A DNA stretch of 64,000 bases. Source: Acidobacteriota bacterium. GTDB lineage: Bacteria; Acidobacteriota; Thermoanaerobaculia; Thermoanaerobaculales; Sulfomarinibacteraceae. The position numbers and the translations under genes are program-made. The DNA is taken from NCBI GenBank assembly GCA_024641545.1, contig JAHECW010000003.1, positions 1,951-65,950 of the forward strand, in the 5' to 3' direction. This document shows, piece after piece, positions 27,435-49,965 of this stretch. Position 1 is the first letter of the stretch. Each line of letters opens with the position of its first letter. Below the pieces are notes generated by a model, which saw only the letters and a program-made list of their open reading frames with translations, had not been told where the DNA came from and did no database searches.

Positions 27435-27505
27435 CCCGGCGGTGGCCTCCAGCCGGCATCCGGGCCGGAGTTGAGGATTCCCCGCTGGACGATTGGGATC
27501 GGCGA

Positions 27506-29215: not shown

Positions 29216-29228
29216 GGAAAGTGAGTTC

Positions 29229-29909
29229 TCAGTCTTCGCCCCAGGCGTAGCCCGCGCCCGTGACGGTGACCACGATCCTGGGGGCGGTCGGGTCGCGTTC
29301 GATCTTCTGCCGGAGCTTGGCGACGGTCATGTCCACGGTTCGGGTCTGGAGATCGCCGCTGGTTCCCCAGACCCGCTCCAGGAGCTCGGATCTCGACACC
29401 GCTCGGTTCTGGTGGCGATGGAGCCAACGCAGAATCCCGACCTCGCGAGCGGTGAGGTGGGTCATGTCGCCGTTGCGGATGGCGTGGTGGCGGCCGAGAT
29501 CCATGGTGCAGCCGTCGAGCTCGAGAATTTCGCGCTCGGCCGGGGCCGAGGAAGCCCGGCGAGCGAAGACCTCGATTCTGGCGAGCAACTCACGGACGCC
29601 GAAGGGCTTGGTGACATAGTCGTCGGCGCCGGCGGCAAATCCGGCGACCTTCTCGTCCTCGGAGCCCCGCGCGGTCAGCATCAGGATCGGGAGGGAGGGG
29701 CGGGACTGACGGAGGCGCCGACAGACCTCGATTCCGTCCATCTGCGGCAGCATCAGGTCGAGCAGCACCAGATCAAAGGTCTCGGAGATGCCGGTCTCGA
29801 CGGCGGTTCGGCCGTCTCCCACCGCGGTCACATCGTGGTCCGCAGCGGACAGCAGGTCCACCAGGCCTTCGCGGAGTCGGTGCTCGTCTTCAACAACCAG
29901 GATTCTCAT
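29229..29909 (-). CDS. OmpR-family response regulator
   Basis: MRILVVEDE receiver (DLVLLDLMLP) plus a winged-helix C-terminus (TVDMTVAKLRQKIE). It lies 13 nt upstream of the kinase. Confidence 0.9.
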   Translation of the reverse strand: MRILVVEDEHRLREGLVDLLSAADHDVTAVGDGRTAVETGISETFDLVLLDLMLPQMDGIEVCRRLRQSRPSLPILMLTARGSEDEKVAGFAAGADDYVTKPFGVRELLARIEVFARRASSAPAEREILELDGCTMDLGRHHAIRNGDMTHLTAREVGILRWLHRHQNRAVSRSELLERVWGTSGDLQTRTVDMTVAKLRQKIERDPTAPRIVVTVTGAGYAWGED

Positions 29910-30108
29910 TGTCCTACCCGTACTCAGCATAGCCGAGCCGTGCCCAACTGGGTATCACGATGCGGTAAATCGTTGTCAGGTTGCGAGTTCGATCCGGGCT
30001 CGCGGTCCGCCGCCCGGCGATCCCGGCGGGTGTTCTCACATCGCCCCGGTCCGATGGCCCTGTCCCTCTGGGAATGGGCACGATCTTCGCTTATTGTACA
30101 AAGCGGAA

Positions 30109-31191
30109 ATGGTGAGTCTCGGGAAGAAGCTGGGTGCGGTTCTGGCGGCGGCGGTCGCCCTGGCGGGCTGCGCCACCTCGGCGGTGGACTATGTCGGCTT
30201 TGCCTATTACTTCGATGGCCCGGAGGCCGCCCTCGAACTCCTCGACGAAGGAGATGTCTTCCCCGAGGACCGGGCTCTCGCCGAGGTTGAAAGGGCCGTC
30301 GCACTCCTCGAAGTCGGTCGCTACGAAGAGAGTGTGGCGGCCCTCTCCCGGGCCGAACTCGTGCTCGCAAACCAAAGGACCGTCGACCCGAAAACGCCGC
30401 CGTGGCAGCCCGAGTATCACGAGCGGGTGATGATCGCGACGATGAAGATCGCCGATGCGCTGGCGATACAGGACCTGGCGAACGCGGCGATCTGGGCCGA
30501 CGACGCCGTGGCCGCCGCCGCCGAGGTCGACTGCGAGCCGTGCCGATTCAGCTTCACCCGGGTTCTCGCCGCCATGGCCTTTTCCGGCGCCGGTCGTTTC
30601 GACGACGGTCTCGAGGTGCTTTCGGAGGTGGATTTGGCCGGGCGCGGCGGGGAGCTGGTCGAGGCCCTTCGGGAACGACTGAGTCGAGGCGCTCCCGGAA
30701 CCCAGCCCGAGGGTCTGGCGCCGCCGCCGGTCGAGCCCGAACGAAGCCTGACGGTGATCCTGCTCCTCGGCCGCGGGCCCTACAAGGACTACGACCGGTT
30801 GCCGATCACACGGTCGGAGACCATCCGCTGGACCCGCTACCTGCCCCGGGATCCGCAGGCGGTGACCTGGGCGTCGGCGGAGCTCGAGGATCCTGCGATC
30901 TCCGTCGAGCTCACCGATGTCGAGGAGCTCGCCGTCGCGGGCCTCCGTCTGCGGGCGGACCGGGTCGTGATGGCGGGCGGCGCCGGGGCCGGACCGAACC
31001 CCGGTGATCTGCGCCACTGGTCGAGCCTTCCCGCGAGCCTCCAGATCATGACCTTCGAGGTCCCGATGTGGATCGACAGCATCGATCTGGTCTACTACTC
31101 GCCGGACGGGTTCGAGGTCGACCGGGAGAACCTCCAGCTGCCGGAAACCTGGACCGGCGGACCGCTCTACGTCACGCGAAGGATGCCGTGA
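30109..31191 (+). CDS. hypothetical lipoprotein
   Basis: Start at MVSLGKKLGAVLAAAVALAGC (lipobox), 360 aa, with a TPR-like N-terminal helix pair. No family recognised. Confidence 0.65.
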   Translation: MVSLGKKLGAVLAAAVALAGCATSAVDYVGFAYYFDGPEAALELLDEGDVFPEDRALAEVERAVALLEVGRYEESVAALSRAELVLANQRTVDPKTPPWQPEYHERVMIATMKIADALAIQDLANAAIWADDAVAAAAEVDCEPCRFSFTRVLAAMAFSGAGRFDDGLEVLSEVDLAGRGGELVEALRERLSRGAPGTQPEGLAPPPVEPERSLTVILLLGRGPYKDYDRLPITRSETIRWTRYLPRDPQAVTWASAELEDPAISVELTDVEELAVAGLRLRADRVVMAGGAGAGPNPGDLRHWSSLPASLQIMTFEVPMWIDSIDLVYYSPDGFEVDRENLQLPETWTGGPLYVTRRMP

Positions 31192-31226
31192 CCAACGACG
31201 CCGGGCGCCCCACGACTCGACGGCCG

Positions 31227-31254
31227 CCAGTCACCAGTCACCAGTCACCAATCA
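31227..31254. repeat. (CAGTCACC)3 word array
   Basis: CCAGTCACCAGTCACCAGTCACCAATCA lies between convergent stops at 31191 and 31252. Confidence 0.8.
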
Positions 31255-33441
31255 ATGCCCCAACCGCTCCTTGAGATCCTCCAACAGCTCCACCGCGGCC
31301 TCGGCGATGACGGTCCCGGGGCCGAAGATATGGCCGGCGCCGGCTTCTCGGAGGGCCTCGTAGTCCTGGGGTGGGATCACCCCGCCGACAACGATGATGA
31401 TGTCCGACCGGCCGAGCGCGTCGAGGGCCTTCTTGAGCTCGGGGATGAGGGTCAGGTGGCCCGCGGCGAGGGAGGAGACCCCGACCACGTGGACGTCGTT
31501 CTCGACGGCCTGGCGGGCGGCCTCCCCGGGGGTGGAGAACATCGGACCGACATCGACATCGAAGCCGAGATCGGCGAACGCCGTGGCGATGACTTTTTGA
31601 CCCCGGTCGTGGCCGTCCTGACCGACCTTGGCGACCAGAATCCGCGGCCGGCGTCCCTCGAGCTCGGCGAGCTCGTCGGTGAGTCGGCGGGCCTCGCTGA
31701 CGTTTGCCATGCCATCTCCCACTTCGTTCCTGTAGACGCCGCTGATCGAGCGGATCACCGCCCGGTGGCGTCCGTAGACCTTTTCCAAAGCGTAGCTCAT
31801 CTCGCCGACGGTGGCGTTGACGCGTGCGGCTTCGATGCTGAGGGCGAGGAGGTTGCCCTCGCCGGTCTCGGCGGCCGCGGTGAGGGCGTCGAGGGCGGCC
31901 TCGACGGCGGCGCCGTCGCGTTCGGCGCGCAGCGCTCCGAGGCGGGCGACCTGGGCCTTGAGAACCGCCGAGTTGTCGACCTTGAGGACATCGATCTCCT
32001 CCTCGTGGTCGAGGGGGAAGCGGTTGAGTCCGACGATGGACTGGCGGCCCGAATCGATCCTGGCCTGGGTGCGGGCGGCGGCCTCTTCGATCCGCATCTT
32101 GGGCAGACCCGAAGAGATCGCCTTGGCCATCCCGCCGAGCTCCTCGATCTCGGCGATGTGCGTCCAGGCGCGCTCGGCGAGCTCGTGGGTCAGGCGTTCG
32201 ACGTAGTACGAGCCGCCCCACGGATCGGCGACGCGGCAGATCCCGGTCTCCTCCTGGAGTTGGATCTGGGTGTTGCGGGCGATCCGCGCGGAGAAGTCGG
32301 TCGGCAGGGCGAGGGCCTCGTCGAGCGAGTTGGTGTGCAGCGACTGGGTGTGGCCCATGGTCGCGGCCAGGGCCTCGAGACAGGTCCGGGCGATGTTGTT
32401 GAACGGATCCTGCGCGGTGAGGCTCCAGCCCGATGTCTGCGAGTGGGTGCGCAGCATCATGGACTTCGGGTCCTCGGCGCCGAGGGTCTTCATGATCTTC
32501 GCCCACAGCAGCCGCGCCGCGCGGAGCTTGGCGATCTCCATGAAGACGTTCATCCCGATCGCCCAGAAGAACGAGATCCTCGGGGCGAAGGCGTCGATGT
32601 CGAGACCCGATGCCTTGCCGGTGCGGACGTACTCGATGCCGTCGGCGAGGGTGTAGCCGAGCTCGAGATCGAGGGTTGCCCCGGCCTCCTGCATGTGGTA
32701 GCCGGAGATCGAGATCGAGTTGAAGCGCGGCATCGCCTCCGAGGTGTAGCGGAAGATGTCGGCGACGATCCGCATCGAGGGCTCGGGGGGGTAGATATAG
32801 GTGTTGCGGACCATGAACTCCTTGAGGATGTCGTTCTGGATGGTCCCGGCGAGGTGTTCGGGCGCGACGCCCTGTTCCTCAGCGGCGATGACATAGAGCG
32901 CCATCACCGGCAGCACCGCGCCGTTCATGGTCATGGAGACGCTGACCTGGTCGAGGGGGATGCCGTCGAAGAGGATCCGCATGTCCTTGATCGAGTCGAT
33001 GGCGACCCCGGCCATCCCGACGTCGCCGCGCACGCGCTCGTTGTCCGAGTCGTAGCCGCGGTGGGTGGCGAGATCGAAGGCGATGGACAACCCCTTCTGC
33101 CCGGCAGCCAGATTGCGGCGGTAGAAGGCGTTGGAGTCCTCGGCGGTGGAGAACCCGGCGTACTGGCGGATGGTCCACGGACGGCTGGCGTACATGGTGG
33201 GGTAGGGGCCGCGGTGGAACGGCGCCAACCCGGGAAGATATCCGAGGTGGTCGAGACCCTCGAGATCCGCGGCGTCGTAGAGGGGTTTGACCGGGATGCC
33301 CTCGGGGGTCTGCCAGAGGAGCTCGTCGGGATCGCGGCCGGTGGCGACTCGGACCGCGTCCTCCCAGGCCGGCCGCGAACCCTGCGCGCGGCGATCGGTG
33401 AGGTCGATCTTGCTGAAGTCGGGGAAGCGCTTCTCAGACAT
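31252..33441 (-). CDS. mutB: methylmalonyl-CoA mutase large (alpha) subunit
   Basis: 729 aa from [48 protein letters not shown] and the B12-binding GQDGHDRG. The start overlaps the mutA stop by 8 nt. Confidence 0.95.
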
Positions 33442-35536
33442 GGAGCACCCCCTCCTCCTCGAGCAGATCGACCAGCATCCGGTACCAGTCGCAGCCGATG
33501 TGGATGAACCCCGTGACACCGGCTTCGCGCCAGCCTTCCTCGTGCTCGCCGGGTTTGCCGGCCACCAGGATGGTGCGCGCACCCCGTTCCTCCAGCGTCC
33601 GAGCGAGCTCGGGGACGAGATCGGGGTAGCGGGCGTCGGACGAGCAGATGACCGCCATCGCGGTGCCCGCGGCCGAAAACGCTTCGGCGGCCTCGGTGGC
33701 GGTACTGAACCCCCCATTCCCCACGGTTTCGATCCCTCCCGCCTCGAAGAAGTTGGTGGCGAAGGTGGATCGGGGCTTGTGGTCGGGGACGGGACCCATG
33801 TTGGCGAGGAAGATCCGTGGGCGGACACCCTTGTCTTCGAGCCACACATCGGAGGCGTCGCGGAGGCTCTCGAAGATTTCGCCGTCGCGGTGGGCGGCGA
33901 GGGGCCGCATCGATGTCGCTTGCCGGGTGGCGCGGAGGGCGGCGGTCAACTGGACCACGGTGGCGCCGGCCGCGGCGGCATCGATGGCGAGCTCGAAGAC
34001 CGAACCGTCGCCGGTGGGTGAGTTGGCGGCCGTGAAAAGCCGGGCGAGCTGGCTCGTCGGAGCCTCGCCGGCGGGCGCCGCCGGCTCCGGCAACGAGGGG
34101 GTTGGACGCTGGAGCGACGTTTCGGCGAGGTTCGGGAACGAGCTCACACCGGTCACGGGTTCGCGTCGGGTCGCGATCAGCCGCTTTCGGGCTGCGTGCG
34201 ATCGCTGGAGCTCGTCGGCGATGCCGCCGTCGTGCAGGGCGGCGATGATCCCACCCCCGGCCTCGATGGCCTGGAAGCGCTTCCACGCGGCGTGGGCGAG
34301 CTCGTCGGTGAGCTTTTCGAGGTGCCACGACCCGCCGCCCGGATCGACCACCCGGCCGATGTGGCTCTCCTCGCGCAGAATCGTCTGGCTGTTGGTCGCG
34401 ATGCGGCGGGCGAGATCCTCGGGTTGGCCGATGGCGGCGTCGAAGGGCAGGACGGTGAGCAGGTCGGCGCCCCCCACCGCCGCGGCAAAGGCGCCGACGG
34501 TGGTCCGCAGGCAGTTGACCCAGGGATCACGGGTCGTCAGCGTCCGCGGCGAGGCGACGGCGTGGATCGGCGCCGCCCGGTCCTCCTCGGCCACGCCGCA
34601 GGCGCCGGCGGCGCGTGCCCAGAGTCGTCGGCAGGCCCGGAGCTTGGCCGCCTCCATGAAGAGATCGCGACCCACGGCGTGGCGGAAACCGATCTGACGG
34701 CAGACCACGCCCGGCTCGAAACCGCGACCGGTCAGGAAGCGGAGATACTCGATCCCGGTCGCCAGGGCATAGGCGAGCTCCTGGACCGCGCTGGCGCCGG
34801 CCATGTGATAGGGCAGGGTGCTGATGGTGATGGTGCGCAGCTCCGGGGCCCGCTTCTCGGCCCAGCGTGCGATCTCGGCCAGAAGATCGAGACTGCCGTC
34901 GAGGCCCAGCGGGAGCGCGCCGTCGGCGGCGAGGGCGGCGAGGGGGTCGCAGTCGAGGCTGCCCAGGAGCTGTCGGGGTTCGATTTCGCCACCGCGGGCG
35001 GCGGCGACGATGATTGCGGCAACGGCGGCGGAACTGCCGCCGGCAGTGAGGTGAATCGGCGTGGTCGGGAGGTCGACGCGCTCGAGGAACGGATCCAGAT
35101 CGCGAACCGAGGTCAGCCGGATTCCATCCCCCGGGATGGGATCGGCGTGGTCGGCGGCGGTGCGGGTGGCGGGGTCGAAGACCAGCCAGAGGGAATTCGC
35201 ACCCCGGCCGAGCTCTTCCCTTGCCTGCCGGGCGGCAACCTCGGGGTTCGGGTGGCCGATCCGTTGGCAGACGTCCCAGCCACCGGCGCCGGGGCCGAGG
35301 GCGGTGCGACCGCGGACAAAGGGCTGCCGGCCGGGATAGCCCGGATCGCCATTCGTGTCGGCCGCGGTGGCCAGCGGCGCGATCTCGATGCCTTCGTGGG
35401 TCTCGACCGTCAGCCGCTCGAGCGGTCGACCCTTGAGACTGGCCTCGGCGATCCGGCGCCAGTCGCCCGGCGAGGGCCGGTCGAAGAGCTCTTCCAGGGT
35501 TGGGAGCTCGGTCAGGGTGGGGTCCGATGATGCCAT
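33434..35536 (-). CDS. mutA: methylmalonyl-CoA mutase small (beta) subunit
   Basis: 700 aa, collinear with MutA (no DxHxxG His ligand). RBS CCGGAGGAC precedes the ATG. Confidence 0.85.
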
Positions 35537-35841
35537 GGGTCCTCCGGTGGGCGCTGCCGTTGGGGATCATAACGTATGTCGGGACGAGGTCGGAGCGGGG
35601 AGGGCTTCCGCTTCGCCGCTCGAGTTGTCGCTCGTGACCATGCATCTGTCGCGTCTGTCCATGGTGAGGTCGACCGACCGACAGTATCCTTGGAAAGGTT
35701 CGGATGTTCAGGAAAGCCACTTGGGCCGGGCCCTGGAGTTCCGGAATTGAGCCGCACGGGCGGCGACCGCGTTTTCCACTTGGGGCCGAGTCCGCAACGC
35801 GTCGATCTCTTTATCGACGTCGAGGGGAAGGAGCTCTCAGT

Positions 35842-37485
35842 ATGAATCGAACGATCCCTGTCACATCACGCGTGGTGTTGATCATCGTCGCATTGGCAGT
35901 GCTGCCGGGAACGGCGAGGGGAGAAACAACGGACATCGACGGTGGCGCGCTCACGTTCGAAGACGCGGGACGATTCGACTCTCCGTTCAAGGCGGTGGAT
36001 CCTGCATCCCGGCTCCCGGAGCGCGTGGTCGATCCGTCGTCGGTGAGGCCGTATCTCGTGCCCGAACACATCCGATCCGTCAGGGGCGCCTCCCCCGGCT
36101 CGGGCTCGGAAATGCTCAAGCAGCTCGAGCCTGAGCTGCGGGACAATGCCCTGATCGATCTCGAGTTGTTCGGCGATCCCGATCAGGTCCATCTTCTGCA
36201 GGCCGCCAACGTGGAAGAGCTGTGGAATGCCGGAAGCCACCGGGAGGCCGTCGAAAGCCTCGACGAGCTCGAAGCTTCGGGTTCGATCTTCGCGGTGGGT
36301 CTCTCCTGGAAACGTCCGATCGTAGTCGACACCAAGATGGTGTATCCGGATGTCCGGATCGGCAGCCGGACCGATGGCGCCGACGCCGCGCTCGATTTCG
36401 ACGCCGAAACCGGCAACATCTTCGCGATGATCGTCTGGAACGTCGGTTGGTCGATGAACATCTCGACGGACGGCGGCGCGAGCTGGGCCGAAACGTACTA
36501 TTACAGCGGGTATCAAACGATCGCCGACATGACGGTGTCCGGCGATTTCGCGTGGGTCGGTTACAGCGCCGACGCCGACGCCTACCACTCGTCCCGGTTC
36601 CGTCGGTTCGACGTCGCAACCGGTCTTCACGACGACGTCTACAGCTTCCAAATCGTCGCCGACGAAGCCCCCAATACCATGGTCGAGATCGCGGTTGTGG
36701 GAAACGCGCCCGACCTGGACAACCGTATCTACATCGCCTACCTCCTGGACGAGGACAACAGCATCCACTTCTGGTGGGCATACATCGAAGGCCTGTCGTT
36801 CCACGAGATCTCGCCCGCGGTCACCGATGCGGCATCGAGCCTCGACCTGTGCTGGAATCCAGCCACCTCGAGCGGGTACCGGCGGTGGATTTCGTATCTT
36901 TCGACCGGCGGTTCCGTCCGAATCTGGCGCAGCTCCGGGGATGCATGGAACCCCGAGGTGTCATGGACCTACACCGGCACCACGGAGCGAACCGCGATTT
37001 CCGCCTACGCCGATAACGTGTACTGTGCGTTCGAGTGCGAAACCGATCCGGACAAGTACGGGGCCTGCTACCTGTCCAGCTCCGACGCCGGCGTCACCTC
37101 CTGGGTTCACGACGACGCCTACTGGCCGACAGGAACCGAGGTGAGCGGTTACTCCCCCGACATCACCGTGCGCTCGGGCGTCGGCAGGGCGCTCGTCTTC
37201 AGCTCCGAGACCGGCTTTCTCGACGATGTGTACTACACCACTCGCCGAGGTTGGACCGCGGGAACGTGGTCCGACCCGGTGTGGTACAACAACTATGATC
37301 ACGTCTCGGGCGAGGCGACCTACATCGAGTGGCTCGGAGCGAGCTGCGTCTCGACCTTCGGGATGCTCTACTTCGATGGAACGGGTGATCATTCGCCCTA
37401 CTTCGATCTCATGACCCCGCGGGGCTATTTCTGCGACGGCTTTGAAGGCGGGTCCACCGGCGGCTGGAGTTCGGTGCTGCCGTAG
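35842..37485 (+). CDS. secreted BNR/Asp-box beta-propeller-like protein
   Basis: Start at MNRTIPVTSRVVLIIVALAVLPGTARG (signal peptide) with GGAAGGAG upstream. Asp-box STDGGASW. C-terminal tail YFCDGFEGGSTGGWSSVLP. Confidence 0.75.
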   Translation: MNRTIPVTSRVVLIIVALAVLPGTARGETTDIDGGALTFEDAGRFDSPFKAVDPASRLPERVVDPSSVRPYLVPEHIRSVRGASPGSGSEMLKQLEPELRDNALIDLELFGDPDQVHLLQAANVEELWNAGSHREAVESLDELEASGSIFAVGLSWKRPIVVDTKMVYPDVRIGSRTDGADAALDFDAETGNIFAMIVWNVGWSMNISTDGGASWAETYYYSGYQTIADMTVSGDFAWVGYSADADAYHSSRFRRFDVATGLHDDVYSFQIVADEAPNTMVEIAVVGNAPDLDNRIYIAYLLDEDNSIHFWWAYIEGLSFHEISPAVTDAASSLDLCWNPATSSGYRRWISYLSTGGSVRIWRSSGDAWNPEVSWTYTGTTERTAISAYADNVYCAFECETDPDKYGACYLSSSDAGVTSWVHDDAYWPTGTEVSGYSPDITVRSGVGRALVFSSETGFLDDVYYTTRRGWTAGTWSDPVWYNNYDHVSGEATYIEWLGASCVSTFGMLYFDGTGDHSPYFDLMTPRGYFCDGFEGGSTGGWSSVLP

Positions 37486-37605
37486 GTGCCGAAGAGCGAT
37501 GCAGGCCGGCATCGCGATGACGAGCAGGGCCGTCGCAATTGAGAGTGGTTTGCGGCTGGACGGTCGCCGTCGGCGAACGGCCGACGCCTGAGATCGAGGA
37601 CGGTT

Positions 37606-37750
37606 TGTCGGGACAGGGAGGGGGAAGATCATCGGGCACGGAAGCGGAAACGGACGCGGCCGCTGCCGCTGTCCCAGTCGGTGTCCCAGTCGGTGTCCCA
37701 GTCGCTGTCCCTGCCGCGGACGCGGGCATGGGAGGGGGAGGGCAAGGGGG
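37606..37750. repeat. hexamer-periodic array with G-tract ends
   Basis: GGAAGC GGAAAC GGACGC GGCCGC TGCCGC (TGTCCC AGTCGG)x3 ... CTGCCGCGGACGCGGGCATGGGAGGGGGAGGGCAAGGGGGG. It shares the GCCGCGGACGCGG end with the arrays at 42706-42812 and 49966-50050. Confidence 0.8.
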
Positions 37751-37751
37751 G

Positions 37752-38363
37752 TTAGCGGTAATCCGGAAACCAACACGACACGATGGTGCCGCCGCCGGGT
37801 CGATGCTGCAGGCTGATGCGGCCGCCGTGGCCTTCGACGATCTCGCGGCACAGCGCGAGGCCGAGCCCGCTGCCCGTTTTCTTGGTCGAGTAGAAGGGCA
37901 GCAAGGCTCGCTTCATGGTTTCCTCGTCCATGCCCCAGCCGCGGTCGAGGACTTGAACGCAGATGGGATCGGCGTGGTCGGCGTCGGTGCGGGTGGCGGG
38001 GTCGAAGACCAGCCAGAGCGAATTCGCACCCCGGCCAAGCTCTTCCCTTGCCTGCCGGGCGGCAACCTCGGGGTTCGGGTGGCCGATCCGTTGGCAGACC
38101 TCCCAGCCACCGGCGCCGGGACCGAGGGCGGTGCGACCGCGGACAAAGGGCTGCCGGCCGGGATAGCCCGGATCGCCATTCGTGTCGGCCGCGGTGGCCA
38201 GCGGCGCGATCTCGATTCCCTCGTGGGTCTCGACCGTCAGCCGCTCGAGCGGGCGGCCCTTGAGGCTGGCCTCGGCAATTCGGCGCCAGTCGTCGAGCGA
38301 CGGCCGGTCAAAGAGCTCTTCAAGGGTGGGGAGCTCGGTCAAGGTGGGGTCCGAAGAAGCCAT
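37752..38363 (-). CDS. chimeric ORF: MutA N-terminal copy fused in frame to a histidine-kinase C-terminal (G2-box) copy
   Basis: 203 aa. Residues 1-~147 are near identical to MutA (33434-35536) residues 1-147. The last ~57 aa are near identical to the C-terminus of the HK at 41341-42816. No internal stop, and the RBS is duplicated. Confidence 0.5.
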   Translation of the reverse strand: MASSDPTLTELPTLEELFDRPSLDDWRRIAEASLKGRPLERLTVETHEGIEIAPLATAADTNGDPGYPGRQPFVRGRTALGPGAGGWEVCQRIGHPNPEVAARQAREELGRGANSLWLVFDPATRTDADHADPICVQVLDRGWGMDEETMKRALLPFYSTKKTGSGLGLALCREIVEGHGGRISLQHRPGGGTIVSCWFPDYR

Positions 38364-38463
38364 GGTTCCTCCGGGTGGGGAGTCCACCCGGGGCTTATGC
38401 TACCGCAATCCCTTCGGCGCCACCGGCCGAAGCGGTCAGCCGATGAAATCTGCGGGATCCCGT

Positions 38464-39213
38464 TCAGTCGTTTTCGAAGAGCCGGGAGGAGAAGAGGTGC
38501 ATGCGGGCCAGGCGAAAACTCAGGGCCGTGCCGAGGCAGCCGAAACCGTATTTCACCGAGCGGAAGAAGTTGATTGACGAAGCGTCCCGGGCGTACCGGG
38601 TCGGACAGCTGATCTCCGCGATGAAGGTTCTTTTATAGAGGATCTGAGCCAAGATCTGGTTGTCGAACACGAAGTCGTCCGATCCCCGGTTGATCGGGAG
38701 GGACTCGAGCAATTCCCGGGAGAACGCACGGTACCCGGTGTGGAACTCCGACAAGTTGGCGTTCATCAGAAGGTTTTCGAAGATGGTGAGGAAGCGGTTC
38801 GAGACATAGCGCCACGGCGGCATTCCTCCGAGCATGGCGCCGCCGCCGAGGATGCGCGAGCCGAGAACGCAATGGTAGAGCCCGTTGCCGATCAGCGCAA
38901 CCATGGCGGGGATCAACTTCGGGGTGTACTGATAGTCCGGGTGGACCATGATGACGATGTCCGCTCCCTGTTCCAGCGCCAGCCGATAGCAGGTCTTCTG
39001 GTTCGCACCGTAACCGAGGTTTTTCTCATGGGTCACGACCAAGGTGTTGTCGAGGTCGCGGGCGATGTCAACGGTTCGGTCTTCACTGGCGTCGTCGACG
39101 ACGATCACCAGATCGACCACTCCCTGTTCGAGAACCTCGCGATGGCAGGTCTCGAGGGTCCCGGCTGCGTTGTATGCGGGCATCACCACCACGACCCGCT
39201 GACCTTTGAACAT
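38464..39213 (-). CDS. glycosyltransferase family 2
   Basis: 249 aa. VVVVMPAYNAAGTL, VVDDASEDRT and NLGYGANQK are typical GT-A/GT2 motifs. Confidence 0.85.
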   Translation of the reverse strand: MFKGQRVVVVMPAYNAAGTLETCHREVLEQGVVDLVIVVDDASEDRTVDIARDLDNTLVVTHEKNLGYGANQKTCYRLALEQGADIVIMVHPDYQYTPKLIPAMVALIGNGLYHCVLGSRILGGGAMLGGMPPWRYVSNRFLTIFENLLMNANLSEFHTGYRAFSRELLESLPINRGSDDFVFDNQILAQILYKRTFIAEISCPTRYARDASSINFFRSVKYGFGCLGTALSFRLARMHLFSSRLFEND

Positions 39214-39226
39214 GATCTCCCCCGGT

Positions 39227-41236
39227 TTAGGGCCATTCCCCCTGATTCACCGCGCCGGTCGTGTCCGGCGATCGCAAGCGCTCCTGGAGCTGCAGGTTCC
39301 GTGGATTCCCGGGCTCGAGCTTGCGAGCCCGCCCGAGCGTCGCCTCCGCCTCGTCGCGCCTGCCCGAGTCCAACAGGGCGATCGTCAGTCCTCGCCACGA
39401 CGGGGCGTGGCCAGGATCGATCGTGGTTGCACGCCGAAAACTCTCGATCGCGAGATCGAAGTGACCGAGCCTGCTTTGTGCCAGCCCGCAGTTGAAGTTG
39501 ATGTTGAGATCGGACGACTCGGCGGCTTCGGTTGCGCACAGCACCTCGGCGGCGGCATCGGGTTCCTGCCTTCGCAAGAGCTCGACTCCGAGGTTGTTGC
39601 GGGCTGGAATGAAACCGGGATCGCCGGCGAGCACTTCGCGGTAGTTGCGGATCGCCTGCTCGACGTCGCCGAGATCCCGGTACGCGTTGCCGAGGTTGAA
39701 GACGATGAGGGGCAGGTCCGGTTGCAGCCGGCGGGCCAGGTTGTAGGCCTCGATGGCCTTCTGCGGCTGACCCATCGCCATCTGCGACTTGCCGAGCAGC
39801 ACCGCCGACGCGTGTTGGGTCGGGTTGATCTCCAACGACCTGGCCGCATGGCGGGCGGCCTCTTCCGGATGGCCGTTGTCGATCAGTATCTCGGCGTAGT
39901 TCGTGTGGGCGACCCAGTTGTTCTCTGTCGCTTCGAGCGCCTGACGGTACAAGGTCTCGCTGTTTTTCCAGGTCGCCGTTTGACGCCATGCCAGCGCTGC
40001 GTACAGGACGACGACAACCGCAACCGTTGTCGTGATCGCGAATCGCAGCTGCGGCCGGTGGGCCACGAGATCGACGAGCCCCCATGCCAGCATCAGCCAC
40101 AGACCGATCTGGGGAAGATAGGAGTATCTGTCAGCCATGGCCTGGGAACCCACCTGCACGAGCCCGATCACCGGCAGCAGGGTGCCCATGAACCAGAACC
40201 AGCCGACGGCCAGGTACGGACGAGGTCGAACCTGCCGGAGCACGGCCGCCGTCACTGTGACCAGCAGTGCGCCGGCCGCCGCTGCCTGCCACCACGGGGT
40301 GCCGTTCACCGGGTGCGGGTAGAAGACCGCGAGATTGGTGGGAAACAGGGACTTGAGGATATACCCGACCCAGGCGACCGGAGCGTTGCTGAGGCGGGCC
40401 GAGAACGGCAGCTCCGACAGACCACCGAGAGCGCCGCGTTGGGCGATCATCGTGACCGCGCTCGAGGCGAGCGCCATCATCAGCAACGGCAGCTTTTCCA
40501 GGGCGAGGGGAAGACCACGACCCTCCGACGCATCGCCGAGCTGAAACCTCTGCAGAGGCCAGAAGTCGAGGAGAAGCAGAACAAAGGGGAGGGTGACCAG
40601 CATCGGTTTGGCCATCAGGCCGAGGGCGAAGAGGGCCGCCACCACCACATATCGTCCGGCTCCGGGACTCTTGACGTACCGGTTCCAGGCCAGGAGTACG
40701 GCCATGGAGAGCATCACCGACAGCACGTCTTTTCGTTCTGAAACCCAGGCGACGGACTCGGCCCGCATGGGATGGATCGCAAACAGCACCGCCACCAGCG
40801 CGCTCGGCCAAACCGACCCGGTCATGCGGCAGAGGGCGACGAAGAGGAGGACGACGCCGAGCGCGTGCAACGCCATGTTGGTGAGGTGGTGCTTGCCGGC
40901 GTCCAGACCGAAGAGCTGGCAGTCCACCATGTGGGAAATCCAGGTCAGGGGATGCCAGTTGTCGGCGTGGAACGAGGTGAAGGCCCAACGAAGCCCTTCC
41001 ACGCTCAGACCCCGTTGGACGATCGGGTTCTCGGTGACGTAGATCGGATCGTCAAACGTGACGAAACTGAAGTCGGCGGTCTGGGCGAAGACGATCACCA
41101 CTGCGAGCACCAGTCCGGCCGCCGTCATCGCGATCGTTCGTGGCAAGGTCGAAGCGTGGCCTCGAGACTGTGCTGGCTGAGCCGGCGGTCGATCCGGAGC
41201 TTTTCGGTTCTTTCGGAGTCGCCGATTCTTGCCCAT
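39227..41236 (-). CDS. TMTC-like membrane O-mannosyltransferase-type protein with C-terminal TPR repeats
   Basis: 669 aa. The N-terminal polytopic domain (FVTFDDPIYVTENP...HADNWHPLTW...) resembles PMT_2/DUF1736. The C-terminal ~280 aa are TPR repeats. Confidence 0.75.
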   Translation of the reverse strand: MGKNRRLRKNRKAPDRPPAQPAQSRGHASTLPRTIAMTAAGLVLAVVIVFAQTADFSFVTFDDPIYVTENPIVQRGLSVEGLRWAFTSFHADNWHPLTWISHMVDCQLFGLDAGKHHLTNMALHALGVVLLFVALCRMTGSVWPSALVAVLFAIHPMRAESVAWVSERKDVLSVMLSMAVLLAWNRYVKSPGAGRYVVVAALFALGLMAKPMLVTLPFVLLLLDFWPLQRFQLGDASEGRGLPLALEKLPLLMMALASSAVTMIAQRGALGGLSELPFSARLSNAPVAWVGYILKSLFPTNLAVFYPHPVNGTPWWQAAAAGALLVTVTAAVLRQVRPRPYLAVGWFWFMGTLLPVIGLVQVGSQAMADRYSYLPQIGLWLMLAWGLVDLVAHRPQLRFAITTTVAVVVVLYAALAWRQTATWKNSETLYRQALEATENNWVAHTNYAEILIDNGHPEEAARHAARSLEINPTQHASAVLLGKSQMAMGQPQKAIEAYNLARRLQPDLPLIVFNLGNAYRDLGDVEQAIRNYREVLAGDPGFIPARNNLGVELLRRQEPDAAAEVLCATEAAESSDLNINFNCGLAQSRLGHFDLAIESFRRATTIDPGHAPSWRGLTIALLDSGRRDEAEATLGRARKLEPGNPRNLQLQERLRSPDTTGAVNQGEWP

Positions 41237-41340
41237 GGCAGGATTCTACCTGGTCCCACTCATGCGAAACGAAGGGAAGCGGCAGGCTTTGGATGCTCCG
41301 ATCCGGCGTTGCTTTCAGGCGCTCCGCGACACGTCCCCCG

Positions 41341-42816
41341 TCACCCTCCCGGGGTGTGCGGCGGAAACCAGCACGAAACCACCGACCCGCCGCCGGATCG
41401 CTGTTGCAGGCTGATCCGGCCGCCGTGGCCCTCGACGATCTCGCGGCAGAGGGCGAGACCGAGACCGCTGCCGGTCTTTTTTGTCGAGTAGAAGGGCAGC
41501 AGGGCGCGCTTCATGGTTTCCTCGTTCATCCCTCGACCGCGGTCGAGGACCTGGACGCAGGCGCCGCCCTCGGCGGTCGCGAAGACCCTGAGGCTGATCT
41601 CGGGTTCGGCATCCGAGGCCTCGACCGCATTCACAAGCAGGTTGATCAGGAGCTGGCGAAACTGCGCGCGATCGAGCCAGACGGGCCGCGAGGGGAGCGG
41701 CCCGTCGATGGTGAGGGTCGGAAACTCGTCGAGGTGGTCGAGCAGCCCGGACCACGTCGCCTCCTCGCGGCGCGGCGCCGGCAGCCGCGCGAATCGTGCG
41801 TAGCCGTCGATGAACTCTCTGAGGTGTCCGAGCCTGTCGCGGATCGTGGCGAAGACCTCTTCGGCTCGATCGGCGTGTTCCGGGCGCCGGCTGATGAGCT
41901 CGGCGGAGTGGACCAGCGACGATACCGGCGCGAGTGAGTTGTTGAGTTCGTGCGAGATGACCCGGATGACCTTCTTCCAGATCGCCGCCTCCCTGCGGCC
42001 GAGCTCGGCGGTCATCCGGTAGAGCAGGACCAGGACGTGCTTTCGGCGGTTGAGAACGAACCCTCGTCGTGAAAGGTGGTAGGTTTCGATGCTGTCGCCG
42101 TCTCGAACCGAGAACACACCGTCACCGTCGCCGGCGAGGATCTCGCGCATCTGGGGCGGGCAGCTCTGTCGGATGTCGGCGGCAAACAGACGACCTTCGA
42201 GCCGGCCGCCGCCGGTCAGCAGCCGCCGCGCCTCGAGATTGGAAAAGACGACCCGGTCGCGGGGGTTGACCAGGACGACGGCGACCGGCGACTGGTCGAG
42301 GGCGCTGGAGAGCAGGAGCTCCCTGGAACGGACCGCCAGGCGTTCGTCGCGCAGGGTCTCGCCGACCCGGTTGTAGAGCCGGGCGAGATCGCCGAGCTCA
42401 TCCTTGCGGTCCGAGGCGAGCCGGACGCTGAAATCGTGGTCGTTGAAACTGGCGATGCCGAAGTGCAGGCCGCTGAGCGTCCGGTCGAGGGGGCGGAGGA
42501 TGCGGCTGACGAGCCAGGCGCCGACCGGGATGCCGATGAGCATGGCGAAGATCAGGCCGAGCCACGGATCGCCGGTGAGCCGCATCATCCCGGCTACGAG
42601 AACCCCTTGGATGACGAGCACGAAAACTATCGCCGCCGTGAGCCGGCCGGCGAGGGAGGGGCGGAAGGGAAGAGTCGTGGAGCCTTGGGGGCGTGAGGCC
42701 GACACCGCGGCTGATGTTGTCCCGGTCGCTGCTCCTGCCGCTGCCGCTGTTCCTGCCGCTGTTCCTGCCGCTGACTCTGCCGCTGACTCGGACGCGGACT
42801 CGGAGGGATCGGTCAT
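41341..42816 (-). CDS. sensor histidine kinase (HAMP-PAS-HisKA-HATPase_c), NtrB-like partner of the sigma-54 regulator
   Basis: H-box VISHELNNSLAPV, N-box LLVNAVEAS, G2 GSGLGLALCREIVEGHGG. ATG 42816 overlaps the regulator stop (ATGA). An alternative GTG at 42705 would skip the hexamer array. Confidence 0.85.
   Translation of the reverse strand: MTDPSESASESAAESAAGTAAGTAAAAGAATGTTSAAVSASRPQGSTTLPFRPSLAGRLTAAIVFVLVIQGVLVAGMMRLTGDPWLGLIFAMLIGIPVGAWLVSRILRPLDRTLSGLHFGIASFNDHDFSVRLASDRKDELGDLARLYNRVGETLRDERLAVRSRELLLSSALDQSPVAVVLVNPRDRVVFSNLEARRLLTGGGRLEGRLFAADIRQSCPPQMREILAGDGDGVFSVRDGDSIETYHLSRRGFVLNRRKHVLVLLYRMTAELGRREAAIWKKVIRVISHELNNSLAPVSSLVHSAELISRRPEHADRAEEVFATIRDRLGHLREFIDGYARFARLPAPRREEATWSGLLDHLDEFPTLTIDGPLPSRPVWLDRAQFRQLLINLLVNAVEASDAEPEISLRVFATAEGGACVQVLDRGRGMNEETMKRALLPFYSTKKTGSGLGLALCREIVEGHGGRISLQQRSGGGSVVSCWFPPHTPGG
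42706..42812. repeat. hexamer-periodic array lying between or inside the NtrC-HK gene pair
   Basis: GCTGAT GTTGTC CCGGTC GCTGCT CCTGCC GCTGCC GCTGTT CCTGCC GCTGTT CCTGCC GCTGAC TCTGCC GCTGAC TCGGAC GCGGAC TCGGAG. Confidence 0.85.
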
Positions 42817-44213
42817 GGCAGGGGAGAACGGCTTCTCGGGCGCCGTTCGAGCTCGATGCCGAACCGCGCCATCTTCCGATAGAGAGCCTGGCGCGTGATC
42901 TCGAGCTCGTCGGCCGCGCGCGCGACGATGCCGCGGTTCCGGTTGAGCACCGCCAAGAGCCGTTCGCGCTCGGCGAACTCGTCGTCCCCGAGCGGTCCGG
43001 CGCTCCGGTCATCGGCGTTGCTGATCCCGAGGTCCTCGGGGGTGATGGTCGTTCCGGACGCGACCACGGTCGCCCGCTGGATTCGATTCTCGAGCTCGCG
43101 GACGTTGCCCGGCCAATCGTGAACCGTGAGCGCCCCGACGGTCTCGTCGGCGAGTTCGAAGATCGCGCCGGGCGCGTGGTGGTCGAGAAAGTGGCGCGCG
43201 AGCGGGAGAACATCTTCGGCCCGCTCGGCCAGGGGCGGCAGCCGGAGCTCGACCACGTTGAGGCGATAGTAGAGATCCTCCCGGAACCGACCGTCGACCA
43301 CGGCGGCGACGAGATCGGCGTTGGTCGCGCTGATCACGCGGACATCGGCCGAACGCGCCTCGCTGCTGCCGAGCCGGCGGAACTCGCCGCTCTGCAGGAC
43401 CCGCAGGAGCTTGACCTGGCCGGCGAGGGAGAGCCCGTCGATCTCGTCGAGAAAGAGGGTGCCGCCGTGGGCGGTCTCGAAGTGACCGATCCGGCGGCTG
43501 GTGATCCCGGTGTAGGCGCCCGGTTCGGCGCCGAAGAGCTCACTCTCCATGAGGTCGTCGGGGATCGCACCGACATTGACGCGGACGAAGGGTCGGTTTC
43601 GGCGGGACGAGTTCGTCTGGACGATCTCCGCGAGCTTCTCCTTGCCCGAACCGCTCGGTCCGGTGATCAGGACCGGCGCCGACGAGTCGGCGACGCCGAT
43701 GGCGAGCGAGACCACCCGATGCATCGCCGCACTGCGGTAGACGACGCCGCAGAGCTCGTGCTCGGCGGCGAGCTCCGCCCGAGTCCGATCGAGCGCGGCG
43801 TGCAGGCGGCGGCTCTCCTGCCGCGCCGCGCGGAGCTCGACAAGATTGCGGACCGAGGTCACCAACTGATCGTCCTGCCACGGCTTCTCGAGGTAATCGG
43901 CGGCGCCGGCCTTGACCAGCTCGACCGCCGACTCGAGGGACGCCCAAGCGGTAATGACGACGATGGGAAGCTCGGGGTCGATCTCGCGCAGGCGGTGAAA
44001 AAGCTCGACGCCTTCATCCCCGCTGGTGACGTGGGGCGAGAAGTTCATGTCCATGACCACGGCGCCGAGGATTTCGCCGGCGACGATCCGGCAGGCCGCG
44101 CCCGGCGAGGCCGCCCCCAGGTTTGGGATGTCGTGGAGATCGAAGAGGACCCCCAGCGCGGTCAGCACCGCCGGCTGGTCGTCAACCACGAGAACCCGGA
44201 GGGAATCGGTCAC
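42813..44213 (-). CDS. sigma-54-dependent response regulator (NtrC family)
   Basis: 466 aa. Receiver domain (VVMDMNF). AAA+ domain with Walker A GPSGSGKE, GAFTGA variant GAEPGAYTGI and RVISATN. C-terminal Fis-type HTH (ELEITRQALYRKM). Confidence 0.9.
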   Translation of the reverse strand: MTDSLRVLVVDDQPAVLTALGVLFDLHDIPNLGAASPGAACRIVAGEILGAVVMDMNFSPHVTSGDEGVELFHRLREIDPELPIVVITAWASLESAVELVKAGAADYLEKPWQDDQLVTSVRNLVELRAARQESRRLHAALDRTRAELAAEHELCGVVYRSAAMHRVVSLAIGVADSSAPVLITGPSGSGKEKLAEIVQTNSSRRNRPFVRVNVGAIPDDLMESELFGAEPGAYTGITSRRIGHFETAHGGTLFLDEIDGLSLAGQVKLLRVLQSGEFRRLGSSEARSADVRVISATNADLVAAVVDGRFREDLYYRLNVVELRLPPLAERAEDVLPLARHFLDHHAPGAIFELADETVGALTVHDWPGNVRELENRIQRATVVASGTTITPEDLGISNADDRSAGPLGDDEFAERERLLAVLNRNRGIVARAADELEITRQALYRKMARFGIELERRPRSRSPLP

Positions 44214-44258
44214 GGTGGCCCCATTCTACGCGGCCCGGCGGCGCGCCGGTGCGTCACC

Positions 44259-45467
44259 TCACACCGTCCTCGTCGTGACCACCGGCGGCACCAGGGTGGC
44301 CTGGAAGGCGGGGGCGAGGGCCGACGCCACCCCGATGACCCACAGCAGGGCAATCCCTTCGGCCAGCAGGGTCCATTCGAGGGCCGGTGCCCCAGCGACG
44401 AGCGTGAGGGCGTAGTTGAGGACATAGGTCAGGACGACTCCGAGGGTGAGCCCGATCCCGGTGATCACCCAGATTTCGATGACGAAATACCGCATAACCT
44501 CGCCGCGGGTTGCACCGAGGGCGCGGCGGGTGCCGATCTCGCGGACCCGCTGGGTGACCGAGAACGAGGTCAGACCGATAATCCCGAGGGCGGTCACCCC
44601 GATGAGCAGCACGGTCAGTGCGGTCAGGATCTTCACCAGGACCAGCTCGCCGTCGAAATAGTCTCGTTTGTAATCCGAGAGCAGCCGAACGGTGACGACC
44701 CGGTCCGTGTTGACCGCCCGTACTGCGGGTTCCAGCTCGTTGAAGACGTGGTCCATGTCGCCGGGATGGGTTCTGACGACATAGCGGAGTTCACGCGGGT
44801 CGTCGGTCGGGCCCGGCCGGAGCATCACCGACTCGGCGATGGACGAACGCGGCCAGGCGTTGTGCATCTTGGCGATGATCCCGACGACGGTGCCGAAGAC
44901 CCGATCGGTGTCGACATCGTGCAGGGTCCTGCCGAGGGCGTCGCCGTCGGGGTAGAGCTTGTCGGCCAACGCCTGGGTGATGATGAGATTCTCGGGCTCG
45001 TCGGATTCGGGGTGGAGATCCGACTCGATGTGATCGCGGCCGGCGACGAGCTCCACGCCGAAGGCGTCGAGTGCTCCGAGGCCGGTGGTGAAATACGGCG
45101 CCGCTTGACCGTCGCCTTCGCTGTCGGCTGGTCGCAGCCGAGTGATCGCGCCACCCCCGGCGAGGGGAAGGTAATCCACGGCGGCGGCGGCTCGCACCCC
45201 GGGGAGCGCCTGCAGCCGGCGGAGGTCCTCCTCGCGGACGGTGTCGAGGAATGCCTGGTCCGCAAAATCGTCGGCGAAGGGCTGGGTCGTGACGACCACG
45301 AGATTGGGCTCGTCGATCCCCGAGGACCGGGTCAGCAGGTCGCGCCGGTCGAGGATGATGGCGACGCAGTTGGCGACGACGGCGAGGGTCAGCGCCACCT
45401 CGACGGTGATGAGCCAGAACCGGGTCGGGTTGTGCATCAGGGCGCGGATGATGGGGCCGAGTTCCAT
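44259..45467 (-). CDS. ABC transporter permease, FtsX/MacB type
   Basis: 402 aa. TM1, a large periplasmic domain and three C-terminal TM helices (FtsX). RALGATRGEV motif. Confidence 0.85.
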   Translation of the reverse strand: MELGPIIRALMHNPTRFWLITVEVALTLAVVANCVAIILDRRDLLTRSSGIDEPNLVVVTTQPFADDFADQAFLDTVREEDLRRLQALPGVRAAAAVDYLPLAGGGAITRLRPADSEGDGQAAPYFTTGLGALDAFGVELVAGRDHIESDLHPESDEPENLIITQALADKLYPDGDALGRTLHDVDTDRVFGTVVGIIAKMHNAWPRSSIAESVMLRPGPTDDPRELRYVVRTHPGDMDHVFNELEPAVRAVNTDRVVTVRLLSDYKRDYFDGELVLVKILTALTVLLIGVTALGIIGLTSFSVTQRVREIGTRRALGATRGEVMRYFVIEIWVITGIGLTLGVVLTYVLNYALTLVAGAPALEWTLLAEGIALLWVIGVASALAPAFQATLVPPVVTTRTV

Positions 45468-45479
45468 GCTTGAGACCTT

Positions 45480-46793
45480 TCACTGCAGCTTGAGGTGGAC
45501 GGCCGGTGCGACCCGACAGATCCGCCACGCGGGATAGACGCCGGCAACCAGGCCGGCAACCAGCGCCAATCCGATGCCGGCCCCGACCATGGTGAGATCG
45601 AGGCCGAACTGACCGCTGTTGTCGAGCAGCCGGTTGATCAGGCGGAGGGCGACGACGGAGAGACCGAGCCCGAAGACGCCGCCGAGGACCCCGACGAACT
45701 CGCACTCGACCAGGTGCTGGGCGAAGACCGACGCGCGGCTCGCGCCGAGGGCGCGCCGGACGCCGACCTCCGGGGCGCGGGCGAGGAACTTGCCGAGCAG
45801 GATCCCGATGAGGTTGACCGAACACACGAGCAGGAAGAGCAGCGAGATGACCAGCATCCCCGTCGCCTCCTCGGGCACCACCCGCCGTGTTTCCAGGAAG
45901 TGCATCACATCGAGGAGCCGGTTGTTGAGCGGTCGGGCGAAGCGGCCGAGCCTCTTCTGCTCCATGACATAGGCGGCGAGAAAGTCGCTGTAGGCCCGCC
46001 GCTGCTCGGCGGTGTCGAGTTGCACCCACATCTGGATCCAGACCGCCTCGGAGGTCAGGAACTCGGAGAAGCCGGTGCCGGCGCTGCCGTCCCAGATGAG
46101 CAGATTGCCCTCGGTGTAGACCTCGAAGAGGCGGAAGAACTCAAAGGGCAGGTAGATGCCCTCCGGGACCTGGTCGGCGCCGGTGTGGGGATCGTAGAAC
46201 CGCGGCGAAGGGCGCCACCGGGCGAGAACACCGACAACGGTGAAGAGCCGGTCCTCGATGCGGATGGTCCTGCCGACGGAATCGCCGCCGCCGAAGAGCT
46301 TCCGGTTGGTGGCGGCGTCAATGACCACCACGGGTTCGGGTCCCTGGTCGGCGTCCCGCCCCCATCCGCCGCCGAACTCGAACGGGACCTCGAAGAGAGG
46401 GAAGAAGTCGGAGAAACACATCCGTGCCCTTTCCCGATACGGCCGCTGCCCCTCCCCGTCGGGATGGACGGTGAGCGCGGCGACGAACATCCCGCTCTGG
46501 TGGGTGGGAATGTCGGATCTCATGATCCCCTGCATGTCGCGGTAGGTGATCTGTTCGGGTGGGATCTCGGGTCGCGACTGGGAGTACGGCCGGTCGGGCC
46601 CCCAGCTGTCCATTTCGACGTAGTACAGACGGTCGCTCTTGGCCGGGATCGGGTCGCCGGAGTAGACGTGGTGGACGGTCACGAAGGCCGTCGACACCGC
46701 AACCCCGAGGGCGATGGCGGCGACCAGCAGAGTCGACAGAACGGGGTTTCGCTTGAGGCTGAGCCACGCGATGCGGATTTGGTAGGCAAGCAT
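45480..46793 (-). CDS. ABC transporter permease, FtsX/MacB type (second paralog)
   Basis: 437 aa with the same architecture. RRALGASRASV motif. Confidence 0.85.
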   Translation of the reverse strand: MLAYQIRIAWLSLKRNPVLSTLLVAAIALGVAVSTAFVTVHHVYSGDPIPAKSDRLYYVEMDSWGPDRPYSQSRPEIPPEQITYRDMQGIMRSDIPTHQSGMFVAALTVHPDGEGQRPYRERARMCFSDFFPLFEVPFEFGGGWGRDADQGPEPVVVIDAATNRKLFGGGDSVGRTIRIEDRLFTVVGVLARWRPSPRFYDPHTGADQVPEGIYLPFEFFRLFEVYTEGNLLIWDGSAGTGFSEFLTSEAVWIQMWVQLDTAEQRRAYSDFLAAYVMEQKRLGRFARPLNNRLLDVMHFLETRRVVPEEATGMLVISLLFLLVCSVNLIGILLGKFLARAPEVGVRRALGASRASVFAQHLVECEFVGVLGGVFGLGLSVVALRLINRLLDNSGQFGLDLTMVGAGIGLALVAGLVAGVYPAWRICRVAPAVHLKLQ

Positions 46794-46805
46794 CCGGGTT
46801 GCTCC

Positions 46806-47534: not shown

Positions 47535-47557
47535 GAGCTTCTCCTTGCTTTTCCGGA

Positions 47558-48829: not shown

Positions 48830-48860
48830 GGGTGCTTCTTGTCCATCGGTCAACCGATCA

Positions 48861-49943: not shown

Positions 49944-49965
49944 TCCGGCCTTCAGGTGGCCTTTG

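Follow-up and report, generated by a model that had tools for sequence, protein, structure and literature searches.

A short in-frame ORF joining mutA and histidine kinase fragments is best read as a recombination scar between two diverged versions of one locus in tandem

In the window, i.e. the whole 64-kb stretch of DNA that was analysed, a short intact ORF carries the 5' end of a mutA gene fused in frame to the 3' end of a histidine kinase gene, and full-length copies of both genes lie within a few kilobases of it. The locus raises the question of how such an ORF arose, and why most of its differences from the resident mutA are synonymous. The original prediction had offered three possible answers, namely selection on the peptide, donor sequences from a related strain or a paralogous locus, and a metagenomic mis-join. 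The 203-codon ORF is best read as a scar of illegitimate recombination joining two diverged versions of one locus in tandem, and less well as a gene maintained for its product. The parts of the ORF and their counterparts in the window are as follows.

37752-38363, minus strand: chimeric ORF, 203 aa, 612 nt; ATG at 38363, with the Shine-Dalgarno sequence GGAGGA upstream
37962-38379, minus strand: mutA' fragment, mutA -16 to +402, 134 codons; its upstream side is collinear with GT2 as in L033-L036
37752-37961, minus strand: HK' fragment, comprising the final 69 codons of a histidine kinase; G1, F and G2 boxes present, N-box absent
37961-37962, minus strand: illegitimate junction ATC/TGC, in frame, with 1 nt of microhomology
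38380-38463, minus strand: GT2-mutA' intergenic region, conserved with L033 and L031; holds the -10-like TAGCAT
35135-35551, minus strand: 5' end of mutA homologous to the chimera (self-blastn); functional gene
41362-41560, minus strand: 3' end of the kinase homologous to HK' (self-blastn); the full-length kinase ORF is 41341-42816

Self-blastn, translation and Pfam bore out the predicted structure, in which a copy of the mutA 5' end is joined in frame to a copy of the kinase 3' end. The segment 37962-38379 aligned with 35135-35551 at 94.3% identity (418 nt, 23 mismatches and 1 gap), and the coordinates and number of differences predicted for this part were right to within 2 nt. The segment 37764-37962 aligned with 41362-41560 at 85.4% identity over 199 nt; here, the predicted identity of approximately 85% held, but the coordinates had been off by approximately 15-21 nt, since the C-termini of the chimera (last 4 codons, WFPDYR and stop) and the kinase (last 7 codons, WFPPHTPGG and stop) cannot be aligned. 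When the 64-kb window was compared with itself, these two matches of the chimera were the sole substantial internal repeats.

The translation of the ORF was exactly the 203-aa product that had been quoted, and the frame is kept at the junction as claimed. The junction reads ...GAT CCC ATC / TGC GTT CAA..., at a codon boundary and with a single C common to both sides, and the corresponding peptide of the product is ...DHADPICVQVLDR.... Distinguishing SNPs flank the junction unevenly: on one side the last of them precedes it by 22 nt, and on the other the first follows after 6 nt. Pfam analysis of the product showed MM_CoA_mutase positions 1-116 of 512 followed by HATPase_c positions 35-109 of 111. 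The exact chimera protein (P0001) has a single database entry, from a 75,029-nt NCBI contig, and a search of 5.8 billion clustered proteins gave no second one that spans both halves. The same fusion was looked for in related genomes, as had been advised, and was seen on one contig only; L032, the contig of a closely related strain, is without it. A 135-aa MutA-like protein (P0008) was considered as a second chimera and rejected, as it is a piece of the L030 mutA, which is split into several called genes (probably by frameshifts).

In the direction of mutA (descending coordinates), the order of the genes in the window is acetyl-CoA synthetase, PepM14, array, HlyD, ABC, MacB, FtsX, RR54, HK, TPR669, GT2, chimera, array, orf593, mutA and mutB. 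The GT2 and TMTC-like (i.e. TPR669) genes on the same strand and the adjoining array were present as described earlier; a 12-nt array lies at 37670-37711.

52445-54412: acetyl-CoA synthetase
50090-52351, strand opposite to mutA: PepM14 carboxypeptidase
49967-50045: hexamer array
42813-44213: RR54, sigma-54 response regulator
41341-42816, minus strand: kinase (HK), full length
39227-41236, minus strand: TPR669, TPR protein
38464-39213, minus strand: GT2 glycosyltransferase
37655-37727: hexamer array
35704-37485, plus strand: orf593, secreted, no Pfam match, GC3 0.78
33434-35536, minus strand: mutA; MM_CoA_mutase profile positions 1-502 in the full MutA
38464-41236, minus strand: allele-1 cargo between kinase and mutA', TPR669 and GT2; syntenic with L033-L035 at approximately 78-80% nucleotide identity
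35552-37763, no strand assigned: allele-2 cargo between HK' and the functional mutA, hexamer array and orf593
37503-50028, no strand assigned: 12.5-kb block missing from L032, with chimera, GT2, TPR669, HK, RR54, FtsX, MacB, ABC and HlyD

The edges of the two cargo segments coincide, on the left at 41362 of HK and 37764 of HK', and on the right at 38379 of mutA' and 35551 of mutA. No similarity was found between the segments themselves (38380-41361 and 35552-37763). Two unrelated pieces of cargo, each bounded by a kinase tail and by mutA -16, indicate that the window carries in tandem two alternative alleles of one interval, 'kinase tail - X - mutA head', a point absent from the original prediction.

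The relatives that were found are all uncultured, metagenome-assembled Acidobacteriota. Three assemblies (L033, L034 and L035) have the order HlyD-ABC-MacB-FtsX-RR54-HK-TPR-GT2-mutA(full)-mutB, and the window from 37985 to 44233 is collinear with L033 at 78%, the 100-nt GT2-mutA spacer included. This synteny and collinearity show that the position of TPR-GT2 between kinase and mutA is native and old, and the mutA' of the chimera is the truncated mutA of the HK-TPR-GT2-mutA order. In L002 and L030, HlyD-ABC-MacB-FtsX-RR54-HK is followed after approximately 1 kb by mutA-mutB, with direct HK-mutA adjacency. The independent JGI contig L032 is 96-98% identical to window 23721-37502 and has the order PepM14 - array - orf593 - mutA - mutB; window 37503-50028 is entirely absent from it (L032 4621-4868). 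In L001, PepM14 is followed by a short repeat element and then by mutA.

As to the parental arrangements, allele 1 with a full mutA was found (L033-L035), and allele 2 was found solely as orf593-mutA without the kinase (L032). The postulated second parent, with an intact HK' followed by array-orf593-mutA, was not recovered, as a metagenome scan for orf593 was empty. A degenerate DNA pattern for the HK'-specific C-terminus (GGGTIVSCWFPDYR and stop) likewise gave no match, and the distant homologues of orf593 (50-60% identity) lie in unrelated contexts that are uninformative on the second parent.

Other relatives carry altered versions of the same interval, which these comparisons mark as a rearrangement hotspot in the clade. 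In L003 (581-631) the kinase body is missing, and what is left of the kinase G2 box (SGLGLAPRREIVEGLGG), in decayed form, lies 70 nt upstream of mutA. In L031 (326-874), an ENA scaffold of 1068 nt, the N-terminus of a sodium:dicarboxylate symporter (113 aa) is fused in frame to a tail of the same kinase family; this fusion lies 155 nt upstream of the mutA start, and its breakpoint is 8 codons from that in the window. We also noted another variant of the locus in L036 (1-940), where GT2-mutA is preceded by a different, 177-aa gene, with no TPR protein there.

The differences between the chimera and its resident counterparts were counted by the method of Nei and Gojobori, by which the following values for synonymous and non-synonymous substitutions, dS and omega were obtained.

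Chimera versus resident mutA, whole 402 nt: 18 synonymous, 4 non-synonymous; dS 0.19; omega 0.07
Chimera versus resident mutA, CDS 1-150: 15 synonymous, 2 non-synonymous; dS 0.53; omega 0.03
Chimera versus resident mutA, CDS 151-402: 3 synonymous, 2 non-synonymous; dS 0.046; omega 0.24
Kinase tails: 22.5 synonymous, 6.5 non-synonymous; dS 0.73; omega 0.06
Window versus L032, rest of mutA (baseline): 10 synonymous, 14 non-synonymous; dS 0.022; omega 0.51

The differences in the mutA part are thus mostly synonymous, as had been estimated by hand (17 versus 6), and the formal dN/dS that the prediction had called for was well below 1 in both the mutA part and the kinase part. In CDS 1-147, all five substitutions assignable to the chimera lineage by outgroup polarisation were at third positions. 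HK' was equidistant (approximately 84-86%) from the kinase of the window, the L002 kinase and the L033 kinase; its C-terminus, WFPDYR and stop, is of the L002 type, and the C-terminus of the resident kinase is of the L033 type. A dS of 0.5-0.7 with an omega of approximately 0.05 indicates that nearly all of the divergence arose in working genes, in separate lineages, before the join. The synonymous excess is thus no sign of selection on the fusion peptide, and it is better explained by pre-join divergence between functional alleles. Of the earlier suggestions, donor sequences from a related strain are the one favoured by the dS values, the third-position changes and the equidistance of HK'. 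There is no need to invoke selection on the peptide, which is implausible for a product that is without the N-box and DHp and has 23% of the mutase domain.

The halves of the chimera have diverged unequally, the mutA' half being 92-94% identical to the resident mutA versus 85% for the HK' half and the resident kinase. The density of differences also shifts within the mutA portion (Fisher p = 1e-4). When the chimera, the mutA of the window and L032 were compared site by site, the results showed that: (i) in CDS 1-147 the chimera stood alone at 15 sites and L032 at none, and (ii) in CDS 165-383 L032 stood alone at 13 sites, where the chimera and the window mutA agree, and the chimera at 3. The identity of the window mutA to L032 was 98.7% to approximately +150, 94.7% from there to +402, and approximately 99% (approximately 0.5% divergence) right after it.

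35154-35372, minus strand: minimum gene-conversion tract in the functional mutA, CDS 165-383, with the haplotype of the chimera

This minimum tract differs from L032 by 6%, versus approximately 0.5-1.5% on either side. The simplest reading is that one conversion event would have copied the haplotype of the chimera into the functional mutA (approximately CDS 150-402), stopping at the limit of the homology. Several amino-acid changes would have entered MutA by this conversion. Through gene conversion, a scar of this kind can return sequence to an essential gene.

We consider it likely that the locus is a scar from homeologous integration and that the ORF marks the join point of an additive recombination event. 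The interval 'kinase 3' end - cargo - mutA 5' end' would exist in the lineage as two diverged alleles, with TPR669 and GT2 as the cargo of allele 1 (as in L033-L035), and the hexamer array and opposite-strand orf593 as that of allele 2 (as upstream of the L032 mutA). DNA of a related strain with the other allele would have integrated next to the resident one. The resulting tandem would be HK - TPR - GT2 - mutA'(-16 to +402) / HK'(last 69 codons) - array - orf593 - mutA - mutB, where the chimera links mutA +402, at which allele 1 ends, to the point 69 codons short of the kinase stop at which allele 2 starts. We infer two possible routes. In homology-facilitated illegitimate recombination (HFIR), one side would have recombined by a homologous crossover and the other by an illegitimate end-join with 1-nt microhomology. 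Alternatively, a fragment reaching from the kinase to mutA would have circularised and then integrated by a single crossover in the kinase tail. The join would be in frame by chance, and since mutA' kept its ribosome-binding site and upstream region, an intact 203-codon ORF would result, with a low dN/dS inherited from the parent alleles. An intact ORF of 612 nt is unremarkable, given that the sequence has diverged by at most 1-2% since it was joined. After the join, mutA' of the chimera would have converted part of the functional mutA.

Additive integration is consistent with the novel junction between non-homologous sequences that share 1 nt, and with the diverged DNA having evolved as functional genes elsewhere (dS 0.5-0.7, omega 0.03-0.07). 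Experimental HFIR junctions usually have a few nucleotides of microhomology, and the single nucleotide found here counts against that route. The unequal divergence of the two halves also counts against additive integration, as it requires the conversion event and some rate heterogeneity. The searches for the second parent, which gave no match, and the occurrence of the fusion on one contig only weigh against it too. Campbell integration with a crossover inside mutA was rejected, since it predicts that the chimera is the same as L032 in CDS 165-402, the opposite of what was observed. PepM14 is 90% identical to L032, versus a 98% baseline; this divergence hints at a long donor tract that may reach to at least 52334.

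The fusion could also be an artefact in which the assembler or a chimeric read linked two co-occurring strains, one with allele 1 and the other with allele 2, as in the mis-join of the original prediction; no cell would then contain the ORF. The metagenomic origin of all the relatives found, the separate occurrence of both alleles in other assemblies, the presence of the fusion on one contig only, and the strain-level mosaicism around the locus (PepM14 again) would fit such an artefact. Nevertheless, the overlap of 1 nt, the lack of a shared k-mer and the uneven SNP flanks (22 nt and 6 nt) are unlike a de Bruijn graph merge, and there are no other duplicated haplotype segments in the 64-kb window. 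Moreover, the chimera-type patch in the functional mutA ends with the duplicated homology, as for intragenomic gene conversion; a tract that ends there implies that both mutA copies were in one chromosome, and this is the chief internal argument against mis-assembly. We regard the artefact as unlikely. An in-situ tandem duplication from the kinase interior to mutA +402 in one genome, with later divergence and independent cargo replacement or insertion, is quite unlikely as well. The order of a mutA head followed by a kinase tail is the classic join point of such a duplication, and the locus is rearrangement-prone, as the kinase remnant in L003, the other fusion in L031 and the absence of the block from L032 indicate. 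However, the copies have no cargo in common, so that at least two further replacement events would be required, and the dS of 0.5-0.7 with an omega of approximately 0.05 would need a dead copy under strong purifying selection. In addition, HK' is no nearer to the resident kinase than to the kinases of other species, and TPR-GT2 is an old, vertically shared arrangement.

It is also conceivable that a selected fusion protein, e.g. a kinase-tail decoy or a mutase-associated regulator, has been kept intact by purifying selection. The intact in-frame ORF with its Shine-Dalgarno sequence and conserved upstream region, the omega of approximately 0.06, and the second in-frame fusion to a tail of the same kinase family upstream of mutA in L031 are in line with this. 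We nevertheless find it hardly credible, as the fusion is unique among 5.8 billion clustered proteins, is absent from the closely related strain L032, and is without the N-box, the first 34 positions of HATPase_c, DHp/HisKA and 77% of the mutase domain. Pre-fusion divergence explains the low omega, and the possible post-conversion differences, just 3 synonymous and 2 non-synonymous, give no statistical power. An in-frame join has a prior probability of one in three.

The product retains the G1, F and G2 boxes (DRGWG, FYSTK and GSGLGL). It has no kinase sequence upstream of CVQVLDRG, and DHp/HisKA with the phospho-accepting His is therefore absent. The N-box, which in the full kinase reads LLINLLVNAVEAS, is on the upstream side of the breakpoint, so the Bergerat fold is incomplete, and the 23% of the mutase domain that is kept leaves approximately 77-80% of it missing. 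The 203-aa ORF is plausibly expressed, since it retains the Shine-Dalgarno sequence of mutA and its upstream region is also conserved in L033 and L031; an expressed product would probably be non-functional. The -10-like TAGCAT (38397-38402) is located approximately 33 nt upstream of the chimera ATG, and this region may be mutA's own promoter, kept by the chimera. A generic scan for sigma-70 promoters and terminators found nothing above chance.

A -10-like hexamer TA(G/C/T)(C/G)AT was observed approximately 33-36 nt upstream of the mutA ATG across lineages (38397-38402, 35565-35575, L033 at approximately 10785 and L031 at approximately 985). The motif TTGCGGTAGCAT is common to the chimera, L033 and L031, and may be the mutAB promoter.

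Pieces of the kinase tail have been kept after the kinase body was lost or displaced in three lineages (window, L031 and L003), which raises the idea of the kinase 3' end as an element that recurs upstream of mutA and is possibly under selection. We consider this very unlikely. If it were true, the tail could carry regulatory signals for mutAB, or tail-only HATPase peptides on arbitrary N-termini could be expressed and used; alternatively, there could be a sequence-specific breakage hotspot near the G1 box.

The two hexamer arrays (37655-37727 and 49967-50045), which are approximately 75% alike, flank the 12.5-kb block missing from L032. This suggests that the block was gained or lost through the arrays by insertion or deletion, and the state of L032 is most simply explained by a deletion between them. 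The PepM14-repeat element adjacency common to L001, together with the HlyD...HK-mutA synteny common to L002 and L033, points to an ancestral position of the block. Pfam, tRNA and Rfam scans showed no integrase, transposase, tRNA or known RNA in or beside it. Thus, as regards an integrase- or transposase-borne island, there is no recombinase, tRNA/att site or terminal repeat, and only the low-complexity hexamer arrays flank the block. The idea that these arrays are copies of the kinase 5' end was rejected as unsafe, since similar short-period arrays are common intergenically across the window.

Passages in PMC3240628, and PMC5361080 with its references 41, 42 and 47, document both HFIR and circularisation with a single crossover as outcomes for incoming linear DNA. 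According to these passages, HFIR is known from Acinetobacter, Streptococcus pneumoniae and Pseudomonas stutzeri, and also, with a low frequency, from conjugation in E. coli. The locus resembles HFIR in that diverged DNA is added beside a homologous anchor, the far end is joined without homology and with minimal microhomology, mobile-element genes play no part, and extra cargo and truncated gene pieces result. Unlike HFIR, it is known from sequence alone, its anchor side is unlocatable and its microhomology is 1 nt; furthermore, the incoming DNA would be an alternative allele of the same locus, so that the product resembles a tandem 'hetero-duplication'. Campbell-type integration by circularisation and a single crossover (PMC3240628) predicts exactly the permuted join, mutA end to kinase start, with the alleles in tandem; however, a crossover in mutA is excluded by the site patterns, and only one in the 200-nt kinase tail would fit.

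HFIR and circularisation with a single crossover have also been put forward to explain the displaced gene remnants of T6SS and Rhs loci (PMC5361080). As with the orphan 3' ends of T6SS effector-immunity, Rhs and CDI systems, where a new module displaces the old one, a 3' remnant lies downstream and HFIR is the proposed cause (PMC5361080), a kinase 3' remnant is found here; in contrast to them, there is no toxin-immunity logic or repeated orphan array, and an in-frame fusion links the remnant to part of a second gene. Chimeric genes at tandem-duplication join points likewise begin with 5' sequence of the downstream gene and pass, across a novel junction, into 3' sequence of the upstream gene, whereas the copies in the window have different cargo, are 6-15% diverged and show an omega far below 1, which sets them apart from a simple duplication.

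The fusion is thus a known kind of event, an illegitimate-recombination scar, and constitutes no new protein family or mechanism. It is a clear case from nature, found in uncultured Acidobacteriota, in which additive recombination of diverged alleles would add cargo (TPR669 and GT2 alongside orf593) and also leave an intact-looking hybrid ORF. The instructive twist is that the low dN/dS would be inherited from the parent genes and that back-conversion would have reached the working mutA. A low dN/dS between a fragment and its parent is no proof of selection on the fragment when the divergence predates the rearrangement.

Some further observations were made around the locus. Positions 35550-36000, which comprise the divergent intergenic region between orf593 and mutA and the N-terminus of orf593, are only 83-85% identical to L032, whereas mutAB is approximately 98.5% identical. 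The overall omega of orf593 versus L032 is 0.53, suggesting a fast-evolving secreted protein. PepM14 (50090-52351 versus L032 2299-4560) is 90.4% identical with a dS of 0.31, compared with the baseline of 98.3%, and L032 1-2315 has no counterpart in the window, which is further strain-level mosaicism beside the block. The acetyl-CoA synthetase (52445-54412) shows 96.6% amino-acid identity to L001 639-2591, whereas MutA shows only 80%; the closeness to L001 reflects either strong conservation or exchange between lineages.

Tandem arrays with periods of 6-12 nt are unusually frequent in the intergenic DNA and in the kinase N-terminus (e.g. 10819-10848, 11023-11057, 15844-15913, 15926-15976, 42727-42804 and 49967-50035), and two of them (42727-42803 and 49967-50043) resemble each other at 83% over 77 nt. 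The motif CATTGTGGGGCCGGCGCCCCCGCCGGCCGG is found at approximately 49914-49945, adjoining a GC-rich element, and elsewhere in the window as a 58-nt, 2.7-copy tandem (17917-18072). The GC-rich element itself, of approximately 210 nt, is present in seven copies at a spacing of approximately 450-490 nt in L005 (1-3800), in one copy in L001 (9518-9604), and at 49641-49856 in the window; it may be a REP- or MITE-like repeat.
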